From an uncultured Roseivirgaceae bacterium (lineage in GTDB: Bacteria; Bacteroidota; Bacteroidia; Cytophagales; Cyclobacteriaceae), in contig CAYGNU010000001.1 of NCBI GenBank assembly GCA_964351175.1, positions 1 through 49,044 on the forward strand: a stretch of 49,044 nucleotides of DNA. Reading direction: 5' to 3'. Below, piece after piece: positions 8,191 to 49,044 of the stretch. The notes beneath the pieces are model-generated. The model had not been told where the DNA came from. It did not search any database and saw only the letters and a program-made list of their open reading frames with translations. The position numbers and the translations under genes are program-made. The stretch's first letter is position 1. Each line of letters starts with the position of its first letter.

Positions 8191-8499
8191 CTAACTAGAT
8201 TTTGATTTAGAATGCTTCTTTTTATAATACCTCACTCTAGAATAAAATTTATAAACGCTTAATTCAAAAGGTTTTTTTACACCTAATTCTTCAAGGTTTG
8301 CTGATAAATCCTCATAACTTTCTATTAACTGAGATACGACGTTTTTAGAATCATCAGGGTCGAAGCTTTTTGGTTCGGCTTGTTCTATAATCCAATCATC
8401 TATAGATTTAACCTTTTCAAGTATAGATTCATCGCCTCCGCTCAAGATATATTCACACTGAAATAATGCTCTTTGATTTAATTGGCTGTAATAATTCAT
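8191..8499 (-). CDS. Tail assembly chaperone, frameshift extension (gpGT-like)
   Basis: Lies in the -1 frame of 8538..8960 and is open back to the slippery A-run at 8553-8562. Confidence 0.7.
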   Translation of the reverse strand: MNYYSQLNQRALFQCEYILSGGDESILEKVKSIDDWIIEQAEPKSFDPDDSKNVVSQLIESYEDLSANLEELGVKKPFELSVYKFYSRVRYYKKKHSKSKSS

Positions 8500-8537: not shown

Positions 8538-8960
8538 CTAATTCCGATTCCAGTTTTTTTTTAATTCTTCCTGAATCTTGAATAAATCTCCGGCTGTTAT
8601 GCCTGTTTTATTTATCCTTTCGCTTGTTCGTTTTAAGCCCTCGTCAGATATGTCAAAACAAGGATTCCCGTCTATACTAGAAACCAAACAGGCCAAAGAA
8701 ATAGATTTGGTATTCATTTTTTCTAGAATGGTGTAAACGTTGTATCTCTTGTTTTCACGTTCTTTGATGGCTGATTCGTATTTGCCAGAGTAAAGGAATA
8801 AATCTATTGTTTCCTCGTGCTTATCGTAATCCTCTATTGACGAACCTATTCCAATATCTTGAAGATTTATAGATTGAAATTTTATAAATCTTTCCATTGG
8901 TAATTCATACGGACTGCTCCATAATTGTAATTCTGATTTTCCTGCTTTTGCTGTTATCAT
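8538..8960 (-). CDS. Tail assembly chaperone (gpG-like)
   Basis: 140 aa ending TTA AAA AAA AAC TGG (slippery A AAA AAC); upstream of tape measure gene. Confidence 0.7.
   Translation of the reverse strand: MITAKAGKSELQLWSSPYELPMERFIKFQSINLQDIGIGSSIEDYDKHEETIDLFLYSGKYESAIKERENKRYNVYTILEKMNTKSISLACLVSSIDGNPCFDISDEGLKRTSERINKTGITAGDLFKIQEELKKNWNRN
8553..8562 (-). other. Programmed -1 ribosomal frameshift site
   Basis: A9C run; -1 frame reads KKKLESELVGSFPELIGGDYLMNYY with no stop. Confidence 0.7.
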
Positions 8961-11841: not shown

Positions 11842-11939
11842 GGTTTCTTCCTTTGTTTGTAAGTTACTAAATTAAATAGTGAATAATAAATATTAACTTT
11901 TTAATAAAATATTCCTTTAATATCTTGTTTTATAACTCA

Positions 11940-11957
11940 GGTAATTATATCTTTACC
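11940..11957 (+). promoter_or_regulatory. GGTAA-N8-TTACC palindrome overlapping a TATCTTTA (-7-like) promoter element
   Basis: ggtaattatatctttacc, 21 nt upstream of ATG 11979; TTG further upstream. Confidence 0.6.
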
Positions 11958-11978
11958 TTACATTAAAGGAATAAGAAA

Positions 11979-12224
11979 ATGAAACACGAAGCTAGAATAT
12001 TAAATAAAGGAGTTTTTTACCTCGTTAATATAGTGGTTATAACTAAAGGAACATCTTCTTTTTTTAACAACGGGCAAAAAATAACCAAAGATGAAATTTT
12101 CGAAGATGTTGTTCTTACAATTGGAAAGCAATTTCAAACAGATGATGAGGCTTCATTGTACGTAAACGGAAAGGAATTTAAAAAGCTTCTAGCTTTTGTT
12201 TCAAAAAATGAATTCACAAACTAA
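11979..12224 (+). CDS. Hypothetical protein (plus-strand moron)
   Basis: Own AT-rich promoter; fills a gap with no minus-strand gene. Confidence 0.6.
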   Translation: MKHEARILNKGVFYLVNIVVITKGTSSFFNNGQKITKDEIFEDVVLTIGKQFQTDDEASLYVNGKEFKKLLAFVSKNEFTN

Positions 12225-20465: not shown

Positions 20466-20496
20466 TTTCGTTTCCTTTTCGTTTCCTTTAATATAT

Positions 20497-20514
20497 GGTA
20501 AAAGTAATATTACC
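20497..20514 (-). promoter_or_regulatory. GGTAA-N8-TTACC palindrome / TACTTTTA promoter element
   Basis: ggtaaaagtaatattacc. Confidence 0.55.
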
Positions 20515-20561
20515 CAACCATAAAACAAAACAATAAACAATATATTTTTTAATATATAAAT

Positions 20562-21115: not shown

Positions 21116-22657
21116 TCAGTTAATTGTGATTCCTCCTTGCTTTGGTATTAAATCGAAGTATTTCCTCATAAGGATGTTATCCCCGTAATCAGGCGACCTC
21201 CCGTTTAAGTACTCTTTTTGAATGTCTTTGTCTTGTATTTTCAGCTTTCCTTCGTTTGTTCTTTCAGCCCTTTTGTAACTTCTTAAATCTTGTTTTATCA
21301 AATCTTTAATATCAACAACCTGACCCCCGACTTTTACTTTTGTGCTTCTTATATTTTCAACCATGCAAAGTTCTGAATGAACATTGATTCTGATATCGCC
21401 TGTGTTAATGTTTTCTTCTGCAACCTTGTAAGCGCATTGAGTTTTTAGATTGTGATAATTTTCAACTCGTTGTTCTTTGTGTGAACGTGGTTGTCCTGCC
21501 TCCCTTTTTTCTTTTAATGGCTTTGCCCCACCACTGAAACCCCTATATCCTCCAAGCTTAACAGTTCCACCCCCGACACCATCTTGGTCGACTAAGACGT
21601 TAAATTTTGGAATTCCGTAACGTGCTCGAAGTGCTTCGGCTGAATTGACAATATCTTGAGCCTCTGTTTTGTACATGGTCACAATAAAAACAACTTCCCA
21701 ACCCTGCCAAACAAACAAGACAGTAAAATCTCGACCGAACCGGCTTGCATCAATCGTGATATACCTGCCTGTCTTGCTTTGTGGTCTATTATCATGGATG
21801 TTCTCTATACCCATGTAATCAAACAACATTAAGCCGTCAAGCCTTATTTTCCAGTTACCATCTAAAAGCCTTTTTTTCTCTTCCTCCTCTAGTGCTAAAA
21901 GGTTTCCAAGATATTGAGGGTTCTTTTTTAATAATTCTTGATTGTCTTGAATTTTACCGCTTATGAATGTGACGCTTTTTACTAAATCTTTAAGCTCAAT
22001 TCCTTTTACTGCTTCATTTTCGAATATATGAGGGGCTTTTGATATAACTTCATCAACGCTGTCGCCCCATATAGCATCACCTCCATCGGTTGTCATGTAA
22101 CGCAAAACACCGTCTCGCTCAGGTATTGGAAAGCCTGTTTTCTGGTCAATCCACCAACTAATGAAATAAGAAACCCAACTATCAGGATCAGGATTACAAG
22201 TTGCTCGGATGTATGGTGGAACACCACTTGTCGACCTGTTACGGCTTAACATATAAAAGAACATCCTCTTTGTGAAGTGAGTTAATTCATCAAACATTAT
22301 AAGAGGAATTTCTGAGCCTTGAAAATCTATGATGTTTTTTTCGTGCTGTAAGTGTCGGAAACTAACTTTCATTCCGCTTGGAAATTTCCAAGCCTTGTCG
22401 CTTTCGTTTGCCCTGCCATTAAGCAACGGATAAATTTCTTTGCTGCTATCCCAAAGACCACCCTCTAGAGTTATTTGTGGGAACGTACGTCTGAAAATAA
22501 CGCAACCAAAATCACGATTATCATGATGTCGCAATGGTTCAAGTAATTCACAAAATGTTTTCCCGACACCGGCTGCTCCTCCTCCTATTGCGATGTCTGC
22601 TGTCGTTGATAGGAACTTTTCTTGAAATCCTGCTTGTGGTTTTAGATTAATCATCAA
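21116..22657 (-). CDS. terL: Terminase large subunit
   Basis: Walker A GGAAGVGKT, Walker B FDELTHF, ATCNP, nuclease IDASRFGRD and SPDYGD. Confidence 0.95.
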   Translation of the reverse strand: MMINLKPQAGFQEKFLSTTADIAIGGGAAGVGKTFCELLEPLRHHDNRDFGCVIFRRTFPQITLEGGLWDSSKEIYPLLNGRANESDKAWKFPSGMKVSFRHLQHEKNIIDFQGSEIPLIMFDELTHFTKRMFFYMLSRNRSTSGVPPYIRATCNPDPDSWVSYFISWWIDQKTGFPIPERDGVLRYMTTDGGDAIWGDSVDEVISKAPHIFENEAVKGIELKDLVKSVTFISGKIQDNQELLKKNPQYLGNLLALEEEEKKRLLDGNWKIRLDGLMLFDYMGIENIHDNRPQSKTGRYITIDASRFGRDFTVLFVWQGWEVVFIVTMYKTEAQDIVNSAEALRARYGIPKFNVLVDQDGVGGGTVKLGGYRGFSGGAKPLKEKREAGQPRSHKEQRVENYHNLKTQCAYKVAEENINTGDIRINVHSELCMVENIRSTKVKVGGQVVDIKDLIKQDLRSYKRAERTNEGKLKIQDKDIQKEYLNGRSPDYGDNILMRKYFDLIPKQGGITIN

Positions 22658-23168: not shown

Positions 23169-23527
23169 GATGTTTTGTTGGCTAAATACTTTATTAACCA
23201 GTAACCCCACAAAATAACAGAAAGAAACAAGCAAAGAATGCAAACAATTATAGTCATTAAAACTATTCCGAAAATACCTCCTTTATCTATGTGATAATCC
23301 TCTTTACTATCAGCCCAATATGCTTCAGCGCAATGATTTTCTCCATCAACAGGATAAAAAGTTGTATCGATAATCCAATTGATTATTTTCCAATACAGGT
23401 TTTTTCTATCTTTATAACCAACACGAGCAGAAATTGAAACAGAAGGATTCCCTCCGCTTATTGCGTTTCCCAATTGACTAAGAGCAATTAGCAGCCTGCC
23501 AAAATAAGATGAATTATAATCAGTCAT
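23165..23527 (-). CDS. Lysin-adjacent membrane protein
   Basis: LIALSQLGNAISGGNPSVSISARVG...HC motif plus a C-terminal TM. Confidence 0.6.
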   Translation of the reverse strand: MTDYNSSYFGRLLIALSQLGNAISGGNPSVSISARVGYKDRKNLYWKIINWIIDTTFYPVDGENHCAEAYWADSKEDYHIDKGGIFGIVLMTIIVCILCLFLSVILWGYWLIKYLANKTS

Positions 23528-24050
23528 TGAATGTTAATTTAGATATGAAATATTCCCATTTAAAACCAAATCCTGGATCGAACTTTCTTTCAGGGCTTAA
23601 ATCGCTGTGTCTTACGACTTTTTTAATTCCGTAAAAATCGATTATCCCTTGACACATTTTGATAAGTTCTGGATATTGAATAAGTGTGACCCAATCTGTT
23701 TTGATTTTCTTTAGAAATTCATCGTAATCATAAGTTCCTTTTACGAGTACTTCTATTCCGATTGAGTTTGTGTTGTATCCTTTAGCGTGCCAACATATTT
23801 CTCTCGTGCTCCTTTGCTTTGTAAAAGATCCATCAGGATGTTCAAGAAAATGACATGAAAGACGTAATAATTTAAGCCACTCATGAGCAGGATATACGCC
23901 TGCTTTTATAACACGTATTACAATTCCTTTTGAATTCTTTATTTCCAGATCTTTTCTTAATCTAACGTTTTCAGCCATAGCATGAATCACTATCATTTCA
24001 GGCTTTTGCGCCCCCCCTCCGATGTAGGTATAATCTTCTAAAACTTTCAT
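23520..24050 (-). CDS. Endolysin, N-acetylmuramoyl-L-alanine amidase (Amidase_2)
   Basis: IVIHAM, SCHF, WHAKGYNTNSIGIEV, VRHSDLSPERKFDPG. Confidence 0.9.
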   Translation of the reverse strand: MKVLEDYTYIGGGAQKPEMIVIHAMAENVRLRKDLEIKNSKGIVIRVIKAGVYPAHEWLKLLRLSCHFLEHPDGSFTKQRSTREICWHAKGYNTNSIGIEVLVKGTYDYDEFLKKIKTDWVTLIQYPELIKMCQGIIDFYGIKKVVRHSDLSPERKFDPGFGFKWEYFISKLTFND

Positions 24051-24114: not shown

Positions 24115-24166
24115 CGATAACACTCAATAAAAGGCATTAAAACGTCCTTTTGTTTTGGTGTTGTAG
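24115..24166 (+). other. attC-like site 1 (52 bp)
   Basis: CGATAAC...GTTGTAG; aacac/gtgtt and aaaagg/cctttt pairing; loop cattaaaacgt. Confidence 0.75.
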
Positions 24167-24190
24167 TGCATTAAAACGTCCGCTTCGCCA

Positions 24191-24394
24191 CTACAACACG
24201 TAATATAAAACATAAAATTATTCACCTTGTTCGGTTCTTAGAGGGCTTAGGTATTTACCATACACCGCCATTAATTTATCCTTTATACTATTGCGTTCTT
24301 CGTTGTTCAGTAATCCTAAACCATCTAATTGCCTCCACGCTGTAATGGCTTTTAATGCTTTCAACTTTTGTTTTTCTTTATCCATAAGTTGTAG
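24191..24394 (+). other. attC-like site 2 (long, weak arms, ORF inside loop)
   Basis: CTACAAC...GTTGTAG; both cores pair with the neighbouring sites; inner arms only A-rich/T-rich. Confidence 0.55.
24218..24385 (-). CDS. 55-aa hypothetical protein inside attC-like site 2
   Basis: MDKEKQKLKALKAITAWRQLDGLGLLNNEERNSIKDKLMAVYGKYLSPLRTEQGE; below the ORF-track cutoff. Confidence 0.6.
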   Translation of the reverse strand: MDKEKQKLKALKAITAWRQLDGLGLLNNEERNSIKDKLMAVYGKYLSPLRTEQGE

Positions 24395-24399
24395 GGCAT

Positions 24400-24537
24400 T
24401 TAATTCCCTATGTTGTACCTAGTCCAGTTGCCGAACTCTTTGTTTATATCTTCAATCAATCCTTGTTTTGTTGTTGATCGGCTGTAAATTGAGCCAATGA
24501 AACTATCTCCGTTATACACTTCTAATTTTGTCCACAT
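24400..24537 (-). CDS. 45-aa hypothetical cassette protein
   Basis: MWTKLEVYNGDSFIGSIYSRSTTKQGLIEDINKEFGNWTRYNIGN; fills the space between sites 2 and 3. Confidence 0.6.
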   Translation of the reverse strand: MWTKLEVYNGDSFIGSIYSRSTTKQGLIEDINKEFGNWTRYNIGN

Positions 24538-24549
24538 AATCAAAACGCC

Positions 24550-24646
24550 CCACAACAAACGCTATCAATGAATCGGGCTTATTAAATTCAGTGATAGTTT
24601 CGGGATTACTCAGGATTGCCCGACTCCTGATAGCTGATCGTTATGC
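24550..24646 (+). other. attC-like site 3 (97 bp)
   Basis: CCACAAC aaac gctatca..tcgggc / gcccga..tgatagc tgatc GTTATGC. Confidence 0.85.
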
Positions 24647-24874
24647 CTTATGTATTTTATCATATTGGCAATTGATAGTCCTGCAAGGTGAAGTCTTAGT
24701 TGAGCAATCGCCACAAGGCATAACACCATGTATGACGCTATTTTTATTTACTAAGTCTTCTATTTCATCGGCTATGTCCTTAATGTAGCCGTTTGGTATT
24801 ACCTGAATCAATCTGCCTTCATGAGACATTGTTTCAGTATATTTTAGTAGTAGTCTTACTATATGCTTATTCAT
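24641..24874 (-). CDS. 77-aa cassette protein with Cys-rich tail
   Basis: Starts in the loop of site 4 and reads through its left arm; its TAA is the TTA of the site-3 GTTA core. Confidence 0.65.
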   Translation of the reverse strand: MNKHIVRLLLKYTETMSHEGRLIQVIPNGYIKDIADEIEDLVNKNSVIHGVMPCGDCSTKTSPCRTINCQYDKIHKA

Positions 24875-24928
24875 AAGTTCTGCTGTTTAAATCGTAAATA
24901 AAACCATCGCATACACTTGTCATTAGAG
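24718..24928 (+). other. attC-like site 4 (right core GTT>ATT)
   Basis: GCATAAC acca tgtatg..ttttatttac / gtaaataaaa..cataca cttgtc ATTAGAG. Confidence 0.7.
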
Positions 24929-25087
24929 TTCATATTTTGGGCTGCTGCGTTTTCTTCGTTTGTTGAACTTTCCTGCACTTACACCATTACAGTTGGCTTA
25001 ATAATCTCACTTCCGTAATACAGCGATGTTTCATCAATAGCTCTATGAATCACTCCACCAGTTTACCTCCTTCGAGTACGCCCAAAA

Positions 25088-25139
25088 CACTAACATTATT
25101 TAAAATGCATTAAAACGTCCTTTTGTTTTGGTGTTAGGC
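25088..25139 (+). other. attC-like site 5 (52 bp, apparently chimeric)
   Basis: CACTAAC...GTTAGGC; 25107-25135 is identical to 24134-24162. Confidence 0.75.
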
Positions 25140-25184
25140 GAAAGCACTACCAGACTGCTAATCCGATAGTGCATTGCTTTTAAT

Positions 25185-25802
25185 TTACTTTTTAATATAG
25201 TACTTAAAAACCGACTTTAATTGTTTGGGGTCTTTAAGAATACTATAATAACATTCATTATTACCCTCAATATAATCAAGGTTTCGGCTTTCCGCTTCCT
25301 CTTTTGTAATTGGAACTCGAACTACATCAATGTAAAATCTTTTCGGCTTAAATGGTAGTTTTACAAATTGACTACTACCAATCAATTCAAAATCTTTATC
25401 ATCAATATAAACTCTACCAGTAAATGTGTCCCAATCTTCTTTTCCTTTCCAAATAATCGCATCCAAATAATAAGGTGGATTTTTTGAGTTCTTGTCTTGA
25501 AATAATGCTGAACATCTTTTGTTTTGATAATAAGGCTCACTGCCATCTCCCATAGCGGAAACATCACTCCATTCGCTTTCGTGTCCAGTTACATCACAAA
25601 TAGGTTCTTGTAGTAACAATTTTTTAACTGCTTGTGAAATTGTAGAAGCTGTGTAAGGTGCTGAACCACCACTTTGTCCACTATTGCCAAATGCTTCACA
25701 TAAGGCAAGGATTTCTTTTGCGAAAGGAGTTACAATCGCATCGGGGACTGTTGCTGCAAGAATATCTAGCTCTTGCTTTGCAAATTTTTGTGTATTTGTC
25801 AT
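25185..25802 (-). CDS. Conserved-looking phage hypothetical protein (cassette cargo)
   Basis: Likely start MTNTQKF; FGNSGQSGGSAPY and YYQNKRCSALF motifs. Confidence 0.75.
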   Translation of the reverse strand: MTNTQKFAKQELDILAATVPDAIVTPFAKEILALCEAFGNSGQSGGSAPYTASTISQAVKKLLLQEPICDVTGHESEWSDVSAMGDGSEPYYQNKRCSALFQDKNSKNPPYYLDAIIWKGKEDWDTFTGRVYIDDKDFELIGSSQFVKLPFKPKRFYIDVVRVPITKEEAESRNLDYIEGNNECYYSILKDPKQLKSVFKYYIKK

Positions 25803-25866
25803 ATTATATATGCGGTTCGCCTTTACACCACAAGGTTCTAAATTTCTACTTTTAATCCGTGCCATC

Positions 25867-25960
25867 GCCTAACACCCAATAAAAAACAGGCTTTAGGAGT
25901 GTGGTGTCTTTGTTCCGAGCTTAGCCTGTAAAGCCCGATTTTTTATTTTCAACGTTAGCG
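25867..25960 (+). other. attC-like site 6 (94 bp)
   Basis: GCCTAAC accc aataaaaaa..ggcttt / aaagcc..ttttttatt ttcaac GTTAGCG. Confidence 0.85.
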
Positions 25961-26283
25961 TTCATTTGCCAACTCTCTCTTAATTCTAATCCTAAGTGAG
26001 CCAAATCACCAATAGTTTTAAACTGATGCAATGCTACTGTTTTATATTTTTTAGAAATATCAGAAACCCATCGCATTCCAATATATCTATCATCTTCAGT
26101 GTATCTCCAATCTCCATCAAACAACACTTTTTCTTCACTTAATGAATTTGAGCATATAAACATTTCTAGTTTTAAAGGTTGCTTTAGAAATTCAGAGTAA
26201 TCCCTTAATTTTTTTAGTTGTTCAACTGCACAACCAGTTTCTATGTTTTCAGAAAGAAATTCATTTAATGTTTTTAGTTTCAT
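25921..26283 (-). CDS. Hypothetical cassette protein
   Basis: Likely start MKLKTLNEF; YSEFLKQPLKLEMFI motif; stop lies inside site 6. Confidence 0.7.
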   Translation of the reverse strand: MKLKTLNEFLSENIETGCAVEQLKKLRDYSEFLKQPLKLEMFICSNSLSEEKVLFDGDWRYTEDDRYIGMRWVSDISKKYKTVALHQFKTIGDLAHLGLELRESWQMNANVENKKSGFTG

Positions 26284-26322
26284 GATGTTATTGTTGTTTA
26301 CTGCCAACGCTACAAAAAGAAA

Positions 26323-26384
26323 CGCTAACAAGGTTTAAAATTCATTCCGCTTTGCTCCACGAAATTTTACACTAATCGTTAGGC
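26323..26384 (+). other. attC-like site 7 (62 bp)
   Basis: CGCTAAC aaggtttaaaatt..ccgctttgct..aattttacactaatc GTTAGGC; loop resembles the CGCTTCGC loop of classical attC. Confidence 0.85.
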
Positions 26385-26668
26385 TTCATATTACCTTCAA
26401 TCATCTCAGTTAGCTTATCTGCTCCTGTCCACATCATCATAAATTCACGCTCGGTATATCCTTTGCTTAGACAGTATTCTCTTATGTACACCTCAATCTT
26501 TTCCTTATCAGGCAACGAAAGCCTAATATCCGATGTAGGTAAATTTTCAGCCTTAGTAAGTGCTATTAATTTATCCTCTAACCATTCTGAATAGTTAGTG
26601 ATGTTTTCGTTCATTTCAGAAAGTCCGTGCTCTGATTTGAACTCTTCTTTTAATTCTTTTCCATTCAT
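26372..26668 (-). CDS. Hypothetical cassette protein
   Basis: 98 aa; reads through partial site 8; stop in the right arm of site 7. Confidence 0.65.
   Translation of the reverse strand: MNGKELKEEFKSEHGLSEMNENITNYSEWLEDKLIALTKAENLPTSDIRLSLPDKEKIEVYIREYCLSKGYTEREFMMMWTGADKLTEMIEGNMKPND
26521..26545 (+). other. Partial attC-like site 8 (left arm only, AAC>AAT)
   Basis: aagcctaat pairs with gttaggctt of site 7; no right arm found. Confidence 0.45.
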
Positions 26669-27409: not shown

Positions 27410-27639
27410 GATTTGAATATTTTAGGTAATCTGTAAGATGTTTTGTCAGTTGCAGCGTTGTAAACTTTCTCAAAAGTGAAGTCAAAAGTTTCATTGTCCA
27501 TGATGAACAAAGCTGTTTTAAATCCTCCCATGTTTACAGCTAGTTTTTCAGTTTCTGAAAAAACACCTTCAATTACAGTTTTACTTGTCATTCCGTTTGC
27601 TGTTGCTACTGTTTCGATTTGTGTTTTTGTAGTTGTCAT
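27406..27639 (-). CDS. Hypothetical protein
   Basis: 77 aa behind the repeated promoter module. Confidence 0.65.
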   Translation of the reverse strand: MTTTKTQIETVATANGMTSKTVIEGVFSETEKLAVNMGGFKTALFIMDNETFDFTFEKVYNAATDKTSYRLPKIFKS

Positions 27640-27705
27640 GTTCGTTTCGTTTAATTATAAGGTAAAGATATAATTACCTTTCCTTTATTCCAAACAAAAC
27701 AGAAT
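27627..27705 (-). repeat. 79-bp promoter/leader module, copy 1
   Basis: 77/79 identical to 34340-34418; TTTG-N20-TATCTTTA, AAGGTAA-N8-TTACCTT, start codons MTTT. Confidence 0.9.
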
Positions 27706-27731
27706 TTATTTTCTGTTTTAATCTAAAATAT

Positions 27732-29077: not shown

Positions 29078-29215
29078 TTTCTTTTGTTTATTCCCACGAC
29101 TTAATTTTTTTACATCTTTAATCTAAAATACAAATTCCATTTTTCAGGAATGTGTATCCTCCTAAATCACGAAACCAACCGGTAAACTCTTTATCTCACC
29201 AAGAAGGCTGATATT

Positions 29216-29404
29216 TTATCGTGATTCTTTTAAAAGGTTATCGACTTCTTCGTCTGTGAAATCATGTATTGTTTCATAACCTTTTTTAAGGCCGTATTCA
29301 AGCACTTTCTTCGCTTCGGCTTTAGTCATACGTTCGCCCCTGTGTTCTAACGACCTGTAAGCTGTATTAAGCCGATTCAAGCATCCTTTTATGTCTGCGT
29401 TCAT
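29216..29404 (-). CDS. Hypothetical protein
   Basis: 62-aa ORF. Confidence 0.55.
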   Translation of the reverse strand: MNADIKGCLNRLNTAYRSLEHRGERMTKAEAKKVLEYGLKKGYETIHDFTDEEVDNLLKESR

Positions 29405-30100: not shown

Positions 30101-30103
30101 TAT

Positions 30104-30121
30104 GGTAAAGATGTAATTACC
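30104..30121 (-). promoter_or_regulatory. GGTAA-N8-TTACC palindrome
   Basis: ggtaaagatgtaattacc, 3 nt upstream of the RNase H start. Confidence 0.5.
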
Positions 30122-30270
30122 TTTTATTAAAACCTAATTGAATAGAGGCTGTTTTGTTTGAGTTTAAAATTTCCTTTAATAAGTTGTTTTCACCCCAATG
30201 AGTTTCGATTATTTTATTTTCCTTATTCACCCACTCCCACTCTAGAGATATAGGGCTTGGATAAATGCCT

Positions 30271-33435: not shown

Positions 33436-34005
33436 TTATGAAGTTACGTTTTTAGTGGATTCCTTCCCGTTTGATGGTAAACTTATAACAACCTGAGCGA
33501 CTTGTTTCTGGCTGTTGTCTTTCTCATAAATACCTGTGTGTTTTCCTAGTTGTTCTAGAGCGTGGGATTTGCTGTGAAACTTGTATTTCCTGTCTATTAC
33601 TGTAATTCCTGCATCATTATCCCTATGGATCTGACGCTCTGTTATTTCTGAAATAACAGCACTATCCTCAGGCGACATTTCTGATAAGTCTTTCAACCGG
33701 CTTGACATTTCACCTGTTTCCTTATTGTATGTTGTTTGCTTGATGTTGCGTGGATTAAAAAATGCAATCTTTGCGAGTTCCTCTATTACCTTATCTCCCG
33801 TGACTGAAGTTCTTGCATTTCTTTCGGCCGTTAAGAATTCGATGAAATCTTTTATTTTAGGCTCGTTGATTTTTTTGTGTGAATTTACAGAAGCCGTCGA
33901 GTAGTTTGTGGAATATCCTGCTCTGATATATGCTGCTGTCTGATTATAATCTACTATGTATTCATAGCAGAACCTCTTTTCTTGATGGCTTAATTCGTTT
34001 TTCAT
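33436..34005 (-). CDS. terS: Terminase small subunit
   Basis: LSHQEKRFCYEYIVDYNQTAAYIRAGYS...VIEELAKIAF...ALEQLGKHTG. Confidence 0.92.
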   Translation of the reverse strand: MKNELSHQEKRFCYEYIVDYNQTAAYIRAGYSTNYSTASVNSHKKINEPKIKDFIEFLTAERNARTSVTGDKVIEELAKIAFFNPRNIKQTTYNKETGEMSSRLKDLSEMSPEDSAVISEITERQIHRDNDAGITVIDRKYKFHSKSHALEQLGKHTGIYEKDNSQKQVAQVVISLPSNGKESTKNVTS

Positions 34006-34127: not shown

Positions 34128-34352
34128 TTAGATTATTATATTAGCTGCTTCATTAAATCTATCCATAGCCCTTTCAAGTGTATCAAAACACTCATCCGTA
34201 GAATCTCCAACATACGTAAATCTGAAATAATTGCCCCCCACTTCCACTCCGTTTATATTAAACGTATGAGTGTAAACCTGAGCCGTTTTGGTTTTGAAAT
34301 AACCACCCATGTTCATTTGTCCTGTTTTTGTTGCTAAAATTGTAGTTGTCAT
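34128..34352 (-). CDS. Hypothetical protein
   Basis: Likely start MTTTIL inside the repeated module. Confidence 0.65.
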   Translation of the reverse strand: MTTTILATKTGQMNMGGYFKTKTAQVYTHTFNINGVEVGGNYFRFTYVGDSTDECFDTLERAMDRFNEAANIII

Positions 34353-34418
34353 GTTCGTTTCGTTTAAATACAAGGTAAAGATATAATTACCTTTCCTTTA
34401 TTCCAAACAAAACAGAAT
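34340..34418 (-). repeat. 79-bp promoter/leader module, copy 2
   Basis: 77/79 identical to 27627-27705. Confidence 0.9.
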
Positions 34419-34437
34419 ATTTCTTTCGAATTAATTC

Positions 34438-34470
34438 AAAAAAATAACCTCCCCGTGAAGGGAGGCTATA
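34438..34470 (-). terminator. Intrinsic terminator after the GHKL gene
   Basis: cctccc/gggagg stem plus A-run. Confidence 0.65.
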
Positions 34471-40579: not shown

Positions 40580-41228
40580 CTTCAAATACTCTTCTGTAAA
40601 TATAATGATGTGGTCTTGTGATGTAGTTTGGATCATTGCTTGCAGCATATTCAGGATAATGAACCATGATGTGCTCTTTTTCCTTCTGCGACAGCTTTGA
40701 GCCGTCCTTTAATTTTTTCTTTCCAAACCAATATTCTTTCGCTTCTGCTTTACCTGTTTTATGTATAGTTAAAGACCAGAAGTCGTCAAACGTAGGCCAA
40801 AAATCAAGGACGTTATCAGTGCTTTCTCTTTTCTTTTTAGATAGGTTATAGAGATTAGTATTATTGGGTAAAGTTTCTTTACTCCCCTCTGGTAAAGTTT
40901 CTTTACTCCCCTCTAGTAAAGTTTCTTTACCGAGGGAGTAAAGTTTCTTTACCCCCGATAAAGAACTATACTCAACAAAAGTCACTCTATTAACTTCGTT
41001 TACATACCTAATAATCAATCCTGATTCGACTAGTCTTTTTAGGTTGTCTATTATAGTCGGCCTGCTTTTTCCAGTTGCTTTTTCTAAATATCTTAGACCA
41101 CCGGTGTATCTGCTTTCGCCATCCTGAGAAAAGCCGTGTATAATTGAAAACAAAATCAATTCTGTTCCAGAAAGATTGAGTTTATTAATCATCCAACCTT
41201 TAATGACAATGTAATTATCGTCATTCAT
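40500..41228 (-). CDS. Replication initiator (N-terminal HTH, lambda O-like layout)
   Basis: YIVIKGWMINKLNLSGTELILFSIIHGFSQDG HTH; internal iterons; C-terminal FDDFW...K..A...W. Confidence 0.8.
   Translation of the reverse strand: MNDDNYIVIKGWMINKLNLSGTELILFSIIHGFSQDGESRYTGGLRYLEKATGKSRPTIIDNLKRLVESGLIIRYVNEVNRVTFVEYSSLSGVKKLYSLGKETLLEGSKETLPEGSKETLPNNTNLYNLSKKKRESTDNVLDFWPTFDDFWSLTIHKTGKAEAKEYWFGKKKLKDGSKLSQKEKEHIMVHYPEYAASNDPNYITRPHHYIYRRVFEDEIRKSKSGSINKFNDTSRSAITGLI
40868..40952. repeat. Four 15-bp iterons GTAAAGTTTCTTTAC (putative origin)
   Basis: Copies start at 40868, 40892, 40916 and 40938; each has a GTAAAG/CTTTAC dyad. Confidence 0.85.
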
Positions 41229-45497: not shown

Positions 45498-46346
45498 TTA
45501 GTTTCTTAAAACCTGAGCTTCTATTGTTTCAAAAACTCTTGCATCCATTTTCCTTCTTTCCTCTATTGACTTACTATTTACTTCGTTGTCAAAAATAAGC
45601 GAATTTATGGCGTTATAAACCAACCACTCGTTCGGTTCTGTTTTTAAAAGTTTGGCCTCATAGTTAACCAAACCCTCAGCAACAGAAACAAGCTTCTTAT
45701 CAAAAACACCTGTCACGCTAATAACCTCGAGGATTCTTTCGTTAAGTTTTTCAACTTTAGTATCGAAAAGAACTTCATATTTTTTGGAGGCTGTTTTAAA
45801 TACATCTCCATCTAAAAGCTCTTTCATAAATATTTTGAAATCAGAAAAGCTTTTTTGCATATTTTCAAAACTGTGTTTCCTTGAAATACTCACAGAAGAA
45901 TAACCGGCTTTTTTCAGCTCTTTTTCGCTTATTGGCATGGTTAACCCGTTTGAGCAAACCAAACGATGAAACCCTAACTCCATTTTGAATTTTAAGCTGC
46001 TGTCGTAGCTGTGTTCTACGTGTATTTGAGGCACTATTTTATCAGTACCTCCACCAATGGTCAACCCTTCTAAATTAAGGTTGTAGTCAGCATAGAAACG
46101 GGTGAAATTTCTGTGTGAGTAACAGGCTGTGAACTCAACACCCATATCATTCAACATATTTTCTATCTCAGGAAATACAAGCTTGTTATTTATAAGCTCG
46201 TAATTCTGTGAGCAAAGGTTCAATAAATGAGGAACCCCATCTATTTCGCCTATCACAACAGCGTTTCTTCCTGCTGTTCCACCGTAACCGATTTCAGTTG
46301 TTGATTTCTTTTCAACGTCAAATAAAATTGTTTCAATTTTGCACAT
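45498..46346 (-). CDS. DUF932-family protein
   Basis: SQNYELINN, HSYDSS, RLVCSNGL, WLVYNA. Confidence 0.8.
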   Translation of the reverse strand: MCKIETILFDVEKKSTTEIGYGGTAGRNAVVIGEIDGVPHLLNLCSQNYELINNKLVFPEIENMLNDMGVEFTACYSHRNFTRFYADYNLNLEGLTIGGGTDKIVPQIHVEHSYDSSLKFKMELGFHRLVCSNGLTMPISEKELKKAGYSSVSISRKHSFENMQKSFSDFKIFMKELLDGDVFKTASKKYEVLFDTKVEKLNERILEVISVTGVFDKKLVSVAEGLVNYEAKLLKTEPNEWLVYNAINSLIFDNEVNSKSIEERRKMDARVFETIEAQVLRN

Positions 46347-46356
46347 GATTTTTTAG

Positions 46357-46379
46357 TTTTGTTTCGTTCAGTAAAAGTA
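46357..46379 (-). promoter_or_regulatory. 23-bp promoter/leader repeat, copy 1
   Basis: ttttgtttcgttcagtaaaagta, identical at 47372-47394; contains TACTTTTA on the minus strand. Confidence 0.65.
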
Positions 46380-46453
46380 ATATTAATTATTAATTATACA
46401 ATATATTCAGCAAAATATTTCTTTAATTATTTTTATTTTAAACTATAAGGAAT

Positions 46454-46503: not shown

Positions 46504-47361
46504 TTATTTCCAAATGTAATCTCTTCCGTTAATTTCTTTGAATTTGGCCTTCATACTTGAAATAGTTGGGTAACTAACATCGCATCCAACAATTTCAGCG
46601 ATTTCCTTTGGCTTCATGCCTTGTGACATAAAATGCAAAACTCTTTCTTTTTTGGAAACTGTTTTCCCTTCTTTGCTGATTTTTTTCAAATCAACCGGCT
46701 CTCCACATTTGTAATCAAAACCCTCAGGAGTCAAAGCTGTTGTATTCATATCCTCAGAACAAACACCAATCAAGACCAAACCCAAATCGCTCAAGGCGTT
46801 CAAAGCTGCTTTAATTTGTGGTTGTGTTTTACCAACAAAATCAGATATTTCAGTGGTTGTTCTGCAATCAGGAGTTTCTCCTTTTACCGTGTTCTTTTGA
46901 AGGAAATCAAGAATCGCCTCACCTAATACAGTCGCTTTGACTTGTGGTGTTTCAACGGCCTTTTCTTCTTTTGCTTCTTCGGGGATAATTTCTGCCGATG
47001 GCTCCTCTTTTTTTGGTGCTTCTTCAGTCATTTCTTTTTCAGCGATAATTTCTGATTTTTTTACTGTGTGGATTACTTTTTTCTTTCCACCCGACTCAAC
47101 CTTTACAGAATCCCCGTCTTCCTCGATTACTGTTCCTGTGATTTTTGAACCTGCGAACATGAAACTGACTGTTTCACTTTTATCATCGCTTAAAGGCTTA
47201 ACGGCTGTTATCAGATACCAAAGAGGTTTTCCTCCTTCTTCGTTTTGAACCTGAACTTTTGTTTCAGAGCCTTTATCAGCTCCTACTCTTGTGACAGTAC
47301 CGTCAAAACTTAATCCCGCGAATTTTACGTGTACTTTACTTCCTGCTTCTAAATTTGTCAT
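46504..47361 (-). CDS. Multidomain protein: two SH3/KOW-like repeats, wHTH-like and C-terminal HTH
   Basis: V.F.FAG....GTV repeated; TTTEISDFVGKTQPQIKAALNALSDLGLV; GMKPKEIAEIVG. Confidence 0.6.
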   Translation of the reverse strand: MTNLEAGSKVHVKFAGLSFDGTVTRVGADKGSETKVQVQNEEGGKPLWYLITAVKPLSDDKSETVSFMFAGSKITGTVIEEDGDSVKVESGGKKKVIHTVKKSEIIAEKEMTEEAPKKEEPSAEIIPEEAKEEKAVETPQVKATVLGEAILDFLQKNTVKGETPDCRTTTEISDFVGKTQPQIKAALNALSDLGLVLIGVCSEDMNTTALTPEGFDYKCGEPVDLKKISKEGKTVSKKERVLHFMSQGMKPKEIAEIVGCDVSYPTISSMKAKFKEINGRDYIWK

Positions 47362-47371
47362 GATTTAATTA

Positions 47372-47394
47372 TTTTGTTTCGTTCAGTAAAAGTA
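47372..47394 (-). promoter_or_regulatory. 23-bp promoter/leader repeat, copy 2
   Basis: Identical to 46357-46379. Confidence 0.65.
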
Positions 47395-47437
47395 TAAACT
47401 CTAATTGAATAAAACAAAACAATTAAAAAATATATTA

Positions 47438-48187
47438 TTAATTTCTGTAATTAATTTCGCTAAAATTAGGGTCGTAGAATTCGATTGTCCCTTTCTGAAC
47501 GCTGTTTCTTTGGTTTGTCTCTATTTTCCAAGCTGTTTTCACCGTCAATGACTGTCCATTAATAATAATATCGTCATGGCCTGATAAAGCCAACATCATG
47601 TCGTTTATTTCATCGTCAAAATAATATCCCTCTAGAGTTATTGTTTTGGCTGCTTCAAACTTTTGATTTCTTATAACTCCAGATGATTGCTCTTTTGTGT
47701 TCTTTATAGAAACTTCAGGTTGTTGTTCTATAAGATTCATTTCTAGAAATAAAGTGTTGTAATTGTTAACGACTGAGTAATTGAAATTAAATATGTTGGT
47801 GCTATTCCTGAATGACAACATCACAAAGTTTTCAATTTCATCTGATGTTATTACCCTGATGCAATTAGATACATATTTTACCTCTAGAGTGTCGCTGTTG
47901 TAAATAGCGAAGTAATACTCACCGGCTGCAAGGCTTTCAGATATGGTAAAAGCACAATAATATCTATAATCAGTTCCGCTGATAATGTCTTTAGTCAGAA
48001 CTCCAATAGATGCATCAACTTCGGTTCCTCCTTTGAAAACAGAAATTACCCAATCATCAAAATCAGCATCACTAAGAAGTTCATCCAGATTTGCATAAAA
48101 GAAATGCTCGTATCCCCTGAGGTAACAAATACGAGTTTCCTTATCGTTCTTTCTGTAATTGTTTGGTATCTTATAAATAAAAGCCAT
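47438..48187 (-). CDS. Putative tail structural protein
   Basis: Last gene of the tail operon, 249 aa, beta-rich. Confidence 0.5.
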   Translation of the reverse strand: MAFIYKIPNNYRKNDKETRICYLRGYEHFFYANLDELLSDADFDDWVISVFKGGTEVDASIGVLTKDIISGTDYRYYCAFTISESLAAGEYYFAIYNSDTLEVKYVSNCIRVITSDEIENFVMLSFRNSTNIFNFNYSVVNNYNTLFLEMNLIEQQPEVSIKNTKEQSSGVIRNQKFEAAKTITLEGYYFDDEINDMMLALSGHDDIIINGQSLTVKTAWKIETNQRNSVQKGTIEFYDPNFSEINYRN

Positions 48188-48732: not shown

Positions 48733-48989
48733 TTAAATTCCACCTCCATCAGTAATAGGCCAACCATCAGTAATTAAAGATGATCTTGCTGCTCCTGCTG
48801 TTGCAATAGTATAATTTCCGCTTCCACCGTGAAAAGGAACACTTGAATTATGAATATTAGCTTCCCATCCGTTATATATTGAGTCAAGATTTGCTGCGTT
48901 CAATGTTATACCTGAAAACATATTTGTTGCGTTTGTTAGGTTTTGAATGTCCCAACTTCCTAAATCCTGCTCAAAGGCGTGAGCATTCC
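48733..48989 (-). CDS. 3' part of the FN3/DUF285 (BspA-like) protein that begins at 1408
   Basis: AFEQDLGSWDIQNLTN...AARSSLITDGWPITDGG, typical DUF285 cap. Confidence 0.85.
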
Positions 48990-49044
48990 TAAACATTGAA
49001 CTCATATTGGTTACTGAGCTAACATCCCATCCGCTGATGTTTTG
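48990..49044. repeat. 55-bp terminal direct repeat (copy 2)
   Basis: Identical to 1-55. Confidence 0.95.

Follow-up and report, generated by a model that had tools for sequence, protein, structure and literature searches.

In classical integrons, the integrase IntI, which is defined by an insertion (Cury et al. 2016, PMC4889954), recombines the folded bottom strand of attC sites (PMC3053210). Clusters of attC sites without an integrase (CALINs) occur in virulent phages as well. Qi et al. 2023 (PMC9892861) report 17 such clusters, one of them in the Bacteroidota phage P12002L, and IntI1 recombined 5 of 6 sites. These papers, and the others cited below, were available in part, and what is taken from them refers to those parts. 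An array of this general kind lies in the contig CAYGNU010000001.1 (assembly GCA_964351175.1, an uncultured Roseivirgaceae bacterium), the whole 49,044 nucleotides (nt) of which are called the window here. The window is a circular phage genome of about 49 kb, its termini overlapping by 55 nt, as an earlier note on this DNA had supposed in calling the genome complete. Sequence comparisons suggest that the array probably consists of six whole cassettes and one partial cassette linked through attC-type hairpins, that its genes occupy the strand opposite to that of classical cassette genes, and that the cassettes are likely to be moved by a short Xer-like enzyme, which the host or a co-infecting phage would supply.

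The earlier note had assumed that such arrays are not described from phages; the report of Qi et al. shows otherwise. attC clusters without an integrase in phages are already known, and it is the inverted, Xer-served version that was not found in print: searches of the open-access literature brought up no published description of such phage cassettes, and the available parts of PMC8138268 and PMC8618304 mention no Bacteroidota system of this kind. The likeness to the phage CALINs lies in phage-borne attC-type sites without an integrase and in counter-defence cargo, methylases there and a homologue of Tad3 here. P12002L attC1 also has the loop motif of hairpins S3 and S7 (Table 1), with its bottom strand on the coding strand. 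The published account, as far as it was available, differs in treating the sites as IntI substrates and in noting 'divergent directions' only; it describes no inverted cassettes, no genes in loops, no exchange at both hairpin edges and no Xer-like enzyme.

With classical integrons, the array shares AAC...GTT cores, two paired boxes with unequal spacers, pairing cassette ends and a top-strand G|TT crossover. At three related loci (L097, L011 and L035), a recombinase points away from the array top strand, as intI does. In contrast, the array genes are on the bottom strand, the loops reach about 200 nt and contain genes or start codons, a second edge is exchanged as well, the recombinase lacks the IntI insertion, and the phage has no intI and no recognised attI or Pc. 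The array is a cluster of at least two attC-type sites with no integrase nearby, and it works like an integron CALIN, not like a complete integron.

All seven AAC...GTT hairpins and the half site (S0) listed in the earlier note are found where it had placed them, and on the + strand each hairpin reads AAC...G|TT. The attC-like layout that it had proposed is borne out. R''(AAC) and R'(GTT) cores frame paired L boxes at the seven sites, one of which has ATT and one of which is degenerate. Two sites are about 52 base pairs (bp) long, two are 204–211 bp and three fall inside 57–141 bp; the predicted folds have bulges, with no consistent pattern of extrahelical bases of the T-N6-G type. Read along the genes, bodies running from GTT to AAC (38–741 bp, with self-complementary ends) alternate with hairpin cores running from AAC to GTT (38–197 nt).

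Two statistics carry the case for an ordered array. With the sites placed by eye from the earlier note's list, the R-type ends pair with the start of their own segment at 42 of 49 bases, versus 21 of 49 with the adjacent core, and this is the best of 40,320 assignments. Such own-end pairing characterises circular cassettes. When self-complementary segments that alternate with hairpins are scored as a chain, the array reaches 21.0, the 14 window tiles outside it reach no more than 4.2 and 60 shuffles no more than 6.6. The earlier description of hairpins that separate small open reading frames (ORFs) holds in part: some ORFs do lie between hairpins, but one of 55 amino acids (aa) lies inside a loop, and those of 77 and 98 aa each begin within a loop and extend over the hairpin edge into the next body. 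The next crossover is overrun by 34 nt in the 120-aa ORF and by 7 nt in the 98-aa ORF.

What moves can be seen in other contigs, from which 72 loci with Tad3 relatives and 68 loci with the 3' end of the 376-bp body of cassette f were collected. Where both unit ends are present, homology begins at GTT and ends at AAC. Whole copies with both ends occur at 29 of 73 loci for the Tad3 unit (22 distinct flank pairs) and at 32 of 69 loci for unit f (27 distinct). Once duplicates are removed, the upstream hairpin alone is common to both members in 30 of 231 pairs of Tad3 loci, and the downstream hairpin alone in one pair; for unit f, the corresponding counts are 53 and 1 out of 351. Because pairs sharing the upstream hairpin far outnumber the others, the travelling unit is a hairpin together with the gene downstream of it. 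A cassette defined as a gene with its downstream hairpin was dropped on the same evidence. The usual crossover is AA|C along the gene, that is, G|TT on the + strand.

The upstream hairpins sort into 10 types for the Tad3 unit and 9 types for unit f. In other phage contigs, the neighbour changes within a base or two of the 3-nt core, and the sequence beyond the core is unshared; exchange of neighbours at GTT/AAC cores, a check that the earlier note had named, is thus observed. The opposite hairpin edge is exchanged too, less often, and different protein halves are joined there. This is seen in the diversity of upstream hairpins, in the occurrence of S2 on its own, and in the 77-aa protein: five alternative back halves are found behind its front half and three alternative front halves before its back half, the joint always being at Val51.

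Seven sequencing runs were compared, all as contigs; run X1, a possible source of the window, was excluded from support. Three seawater runs of one other study contain pieces whose ends fall at 24159, 24387, 24642–24643, 24923, 25095 and 25871–25958. A seawater contig matches the S6 hairpin with 0 differences over 193 nt, and the Tad3 of locus L096 has 98% protein identity to that of the window. Among viral contigs, none matched the exact S4 and S3/S7 hairpin patterns; the S0 pattern has one match, with no array there.

The polarity of the cassettes, which the earlier note had missed, departs from the classical orientation. Each gene is on the attC bottom strand and has a hairpin upstream of it, and the typical attC layout, a gene on the top strand upstream of attC, is not found in the array. 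The bottom strand of aadA7 has a spacer after its AAC that exceeds the one before its GTT by a single base (+1, counted by eye; Table S3 of PMC9892861). Measured along the gene, the spacer offset lies between +1 and +3 in 49 of the 54 phage hairpins with a clear register, and it is positive at the window sites, S3 being tied. For 73 anchors picked by the cassette 3' end alone, a hairpin follows in the + register at 35 and in the − register at 2; the 380 AAC motifs that served as controls gave 2 and 4, respectively. Spacer asymmetry and the anchor test together indicate that the coding strand is the bottom strand and that the observed crossover is the classical one.

The phage is contig C1 of a 5.2-Mb bacterial bin (G000, 92% complete), which has arrays of its own. 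These run in the classical direction at 9 of 10 sites (6 from one array), and in an order-wide sample all 6 measurable sites behind a recombinase face the classical way (one is from the co-binned genome). One chromosomal array of the bin (G000:C347:48-4406) has at least seven cassettes, near-identical hairpins of 76–115 nt and classical polarity, with no recombinase match on its contig. A bottom strand that lies on the lagging-strand template folds more and gives more excision (PMC5371416). The skew of the window is compatible with a recombining strand on the lagging-strand template, but also with plain coding bias. As a speculation, the inversion might let genes keep their transcription direction with the recombining strand on the lagging template, which would favour folding.

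The phage itself encodes no tyrosine recombinase, in agreement with the earlier note: PHROGs annotation reveals none among 73 ORFs, and tblastn and six-frame hidden Markov model searches of the window gave best E values of 1.2 and 0.55. That note had envisaged an exchange locus serviced in trans by a host IntI-like enzyme. The exchange locus stands, but the candidate enzyme is Xer-like and lacks the IntI insertion; we infer that servicing is in trans. Five Xer-like proteins of the co-binned genome match the integron-integrase model TIGR02249 in two pieces, below cut-off, the model positions of the IntI insertion (about 185–239) being missing. Behind three of the five genes come a short palindrome and then a unit that opens with GTT. 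The Xer/XerA-like family NF040815 (PDB 4a8e, 5hxy) is the best or near-best match of the candidate enzymes, at 174–220 bits (cut-off 220). Of 121 genomes of the order, 35 contain the Xer-like family. The sites known for Xer enzymes are dif sites, which are double-stranded and serve in dimer resolution; the enzyme here differs in adjoining hairpin-bounded cassette arrays.

A recombinase of about 275 aa and of this Xer-like type follows directly after the last AAC at L097, L035 and L011. The adjoining unit is the Tad3 body at L097 and, at L035, a 38-bp body like that of the window's cassette a; at L011, Tad3 is within the same array as the recombinase. By their position, the window units appear to be tied to the Xer-like enzyme family. 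The most likely mechanism is as follows. The coding strand would fold and would be the strand that is cut, like the bottom strand in integrons. An Xer-like enzyme, which the phage would acquire from its host or from a co-infecting phage, would cut at AA|C, and the cassettes would travel as circles. Use of the other strand or of the other edge would yield the rarer exchange, and the cassettes would be read from the phage's own leftward transcription. A bolder version is offered tentatively, as something short of probable: a mirror-image integron of Bacteroidota phages, in which a short Xer-like enzyme without the IntI insertion would recombine folded single strands, with phage genes placed on the recombining strand and host cassette genes on the other. 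Both hairpin edges would be cut, loops and gene bodies would be distributed independently and new proteins put together from halves, and phages without a recombinase would borrow the host's enzyme for loading counter-defence genes such as Tad3.

Several observations weigh against this account. Taken singly, most of the hairpins fold no better than shuffles (z of +0.8 to −2.5); S3 is degenerate and S0 one-armed; and a strict finder that was applied to the host arrays detected nothing in the window or in P12002L. The related contigs in the comparison are not independent samples. The contigs of the seven runs contain no joints that skip or circularise a cassette, so the excised circles that the earlier note had proposed to look for in reads were not seen there. 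Scans of viral contigs with the terminase and endolysin found no relative of the phage and, without one, no empty or reordered copy of the locus. A recombinase is present at 3 of 142 cassette-bearing loci only, with flanks of 1.5–5 kb, and of 22 order-level recombinase loci that were parsed, 8 have a cassette behind the gene and 14 have none. The docking motif of L097, L035 and L011 has 0 matches in the window, where 1.75 are expected, and it is unspecific: a scan returned more than 121 stretches, and among the 80 with DNA examined a recombinase is downstream in one, on the same contig as L035. Cury et al. 2016 (PMC4889954), in the available part, judge recombinases near attC that lack the IntI domain not to be IntI. 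The link between phage and bacterium rests on co-binning. No spacer-like or prophage match and no common cassette was found between the two, and the tetranucleotide correlation of the phage with the bin is 0.936, versus 0.95–0.997 for 23 of the 24 other large contigs listed.

Of the alternatives, a frozen relic survives best, though we consider it unlikely. The array would have been built in an ancestor with its own recombinase and docking site and would now be inherited without site-specific rearrangement. The window has neither a recombinase nor a docking motif, S3 and S0 have the defects just mentioned, two cores read AAT and ATT, and cassette d has no gene. In other phage contigs, the recombinase occupies the downstream array end, the position taken by the endolysin here, and four runs of one study contain no variant arrangement of the array. 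On the other side, the unchanged S6 hairpin and the near-identical Tad3 of L096 fit recent traffic, and the co-binned bacterium encodes several candidate enzymes.

An ordinary phage CALIN served by the classical IntI of some host is improbable. Its core and spacer layout would be that of attC, as found, and the sites recombined by IntI1 included P12002L attC2 (PMC9892861). Against this stand the co-binned genome, in which no protein exceeds the TIGR02249 cut-off, and the cores of 38 and 190–197 nt, which are outside the 57–141 bp site range (PMC5371416); moreover, P12002L attC1, with its S3/S7 loop motif, gave no verified IntI1 product in the available account (PMC9892861). Very improbable is a reading in which the hairpins are RNA or transcription signals and the genes are shuffled by phage homologous or illegitimate recombination at motifs. 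The phage does encode an exonuclease, a single-stranded DNA-binding protein (SSB), a NinB-like protein and a resolvase (PHROGs), S3 resembles a microhomology chimera, and the folding strand is the transcribed sense strand. Such recombination does not explain why neighbours switch at most a base or two from a 3-nt core and have nothing in common beyond it, nor would own-end pairing over up to 741 bp or adjacency to a tyrosine recombinase be expected, and no Rfam family or terminator is found at the array sites. Chance palindromes in AT-rich DNA, which the weak folding scores of single hairpins and the many matches of a loose AAC...GTT scan throughout the window might suggest, are refuted by the permutation, shuffle and comparative tests and can practically be dismissed.

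The protein of the largest cassette is a predicted inhibitor of type I Thoeris. It matches Tad3 over its full length, with 72.8 bits to Pfam PF25185 (cut-off 27) and an E value of 6e-28 to PDB 9b7d over residues 22–204, and it differs from Tad3 in that its gene sits in a mobile cassette. Tad3 binds the ThsB sensor, according to the available part of a review (PMC13728456). ThsB (PF08937) was not found in the co-binned genome, of which 92% is present, and a search of bacterial genomes for Tad3 yielded a single match, weak and partial. Some Tad3 relatives (L002, L003, L007 and L010) lack cassette ends, so the gene is also fixed outside arrays. PHROGs, Pfam-type and further scans assign no named family to the other array ORFs.

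Host integrons reportedly serve as stores of anti-phage defence genes (bioRxiv 10.1101/2024.07.02.601686, available in part). The array suggests the reverse, that phages trade counter-defence genes through the same type of site, the Tad3 homologue being found between 22 pairs of neighbours. If the proposal is true, it would explain much of the small-gene mosaicism of Bacteroidota phages, it would supply anti-defence screens with a shortlist in the form of phage genes bounded by hairpins, and it would test whether folded single strands need the IntI insertion to recombine. The proposal also offers a testable reason for the failure of IntI1 at one published phage site.

Table 1. Features of the array and its flank (window coordinates; the crossover is given as the position of the core G).
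Feature	Position	Strand	Crossover	Remarks
Amidase endolysin	23520..24050	−		Array flank, not a cassette; PHROGs and Pfam-type annotation
Hairpin S7, 38-nt core	24115..24166	+	24160 (G|TT)	+ strand is the attC-type top strand; loose ends of seawater contigs before 24159
Cassette a, 228 bp	24161..24388	+		38-bp gene-less body and hairpin S6; pieces in two seawater runs end at 24387
Hairpin S6, 190-nt core	24191..24394	+	24388	Loop contains 55-aa ORF
55-aa ORF in S6 loop	24218..24385	−		No family
Cassette b, 252 bp	24389..24640	+		Loose ends of seawater contigs behind 24642–24643
45-aa ORF in cassette b	24400–24537	−		No family
Hairpin S5, 83-nt core	24550..24646	+	24640	
Cassette c, 282 bp	24641..24922	+		Contains 77-aa ORF
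77-aa ORF	24641..24874	−		Starts in S4 loop; crosses second hairpin edge at Val51 (24724)
Hairpin S4, 197-nt core	24718..24928	+	24922 (A)	ATT replaces GTT; a seawater piece begins at 24923
Cassette d, 211 bp	24923..25133	+		No ORF of 30 aa inside, probably a remnant; seawater piece 24923–25095 ends at AAC
Hairpin S3, degenerate	25088..25139	+	25133	One 26-nt arm identical to S7; probably chimeric
Cassette e, 821 bp	25134..25954	+		741-bp Tad3 body and hairpin S2
Tad3 homologue, 205 aa	25185..25802	−		226 aa from upstream ATG at 25865; Pfam PF25185, PDB 9b7d
Hairpin S2, 80-nt core	25867..25960	+	25954	Alone (25871–25958) in seawater contigs
Cassette f, 424 bp	25955..26378	+		376-bp body
120-aa ORF of cassette f	25921–26283	−		phrog_12560 (function not assigned in PHROGs)
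Hairpin S1, 48-nt core	26323..26384	+	26378	
Last cassette, partial	26379..26668	+		149-bp body and half site S0 (AAT 26525–26527)
98-aa ORF of last cassette	26372–26668	−		

The half site has no partner arm within 2.5 kb. It was considered as an attI and rejected, since its arm runs on into a loop common to other contigs. The S0 arm (26529–26549) matches the start of the endolysin gene (24018–24038) over 12 bases in the same orientation, probably by chance. In P12002L (L156, NC_028924), attC2 at 29170–29245 lacks the AAC box at its far end and, in the manner of the docking sites that follow Xer-like recombinase genes, consists of a palindrome and GTT at the array head; it may be of attI type. 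Alternating units are far more numerous in that phage than the two published sites. In the co-binned genome, contig G000:C548 has two Xer-like recombinase genes in tandem, the second followed by a transposase-like ORF and then by a GTT-started unit. We take this ORF, from its appearance, to be an IS91-type transposase.

The window belongs to a marine phage, a Bacteroidota siphovirus. PHROGs annotation places portal, head, tape-measure, terminase, amidase and replication genes, and nearly all ORFs are on the − strand. The portal matches 75 annotated phages, all of them Bacteroidota phages except one unassigned record, and the closest have about 34% portal identity. The bin has a partial GldK match. 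Window DNA is found in biofilm and seawater metagenomes, and no RNA runs are listed among the sequencing runs that contain it. Rfam, tRNA, PADLOC and sigma-70 scans of the window gave nothing informative, the promoter scan being at chance level.

The small terminase (33436–34005) and the large terminase (21116–22657) are 11 kb apart, with the array and the endolysin in between. A dispersed repeat occurs at 11901–11982, 20483–20557, 27627–27728, 30101–30155, 34340–34441, 46329–46430 and 47344–47441, upstream of gene blocks, and carries TTTG-N19-21-TAnnTTTA on the coding strand, which resembles the Bacteroidota promoter consensus. The copy at about 27660–27694 would drive the gene block that includes the array. 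Upstream of the tape-measure gene, the adjacent ORFs 8191–8499 and 8538–8960 match the C- and N-terminal parts of PHROG 8914, and presumably resemble tail chaperones produced by frameshifting. Repeats of 72–75 nt at 1–377 and 48733–49044, in an ORF that crosses the circle junction, look to us like BspA/DUF285 surface repeats. Finally, at 40867–40960, inside the replication-initiator gene, a 24-bp sequence is repeated in tandem in two exact copies and a further, partial one, which are possible iterons.

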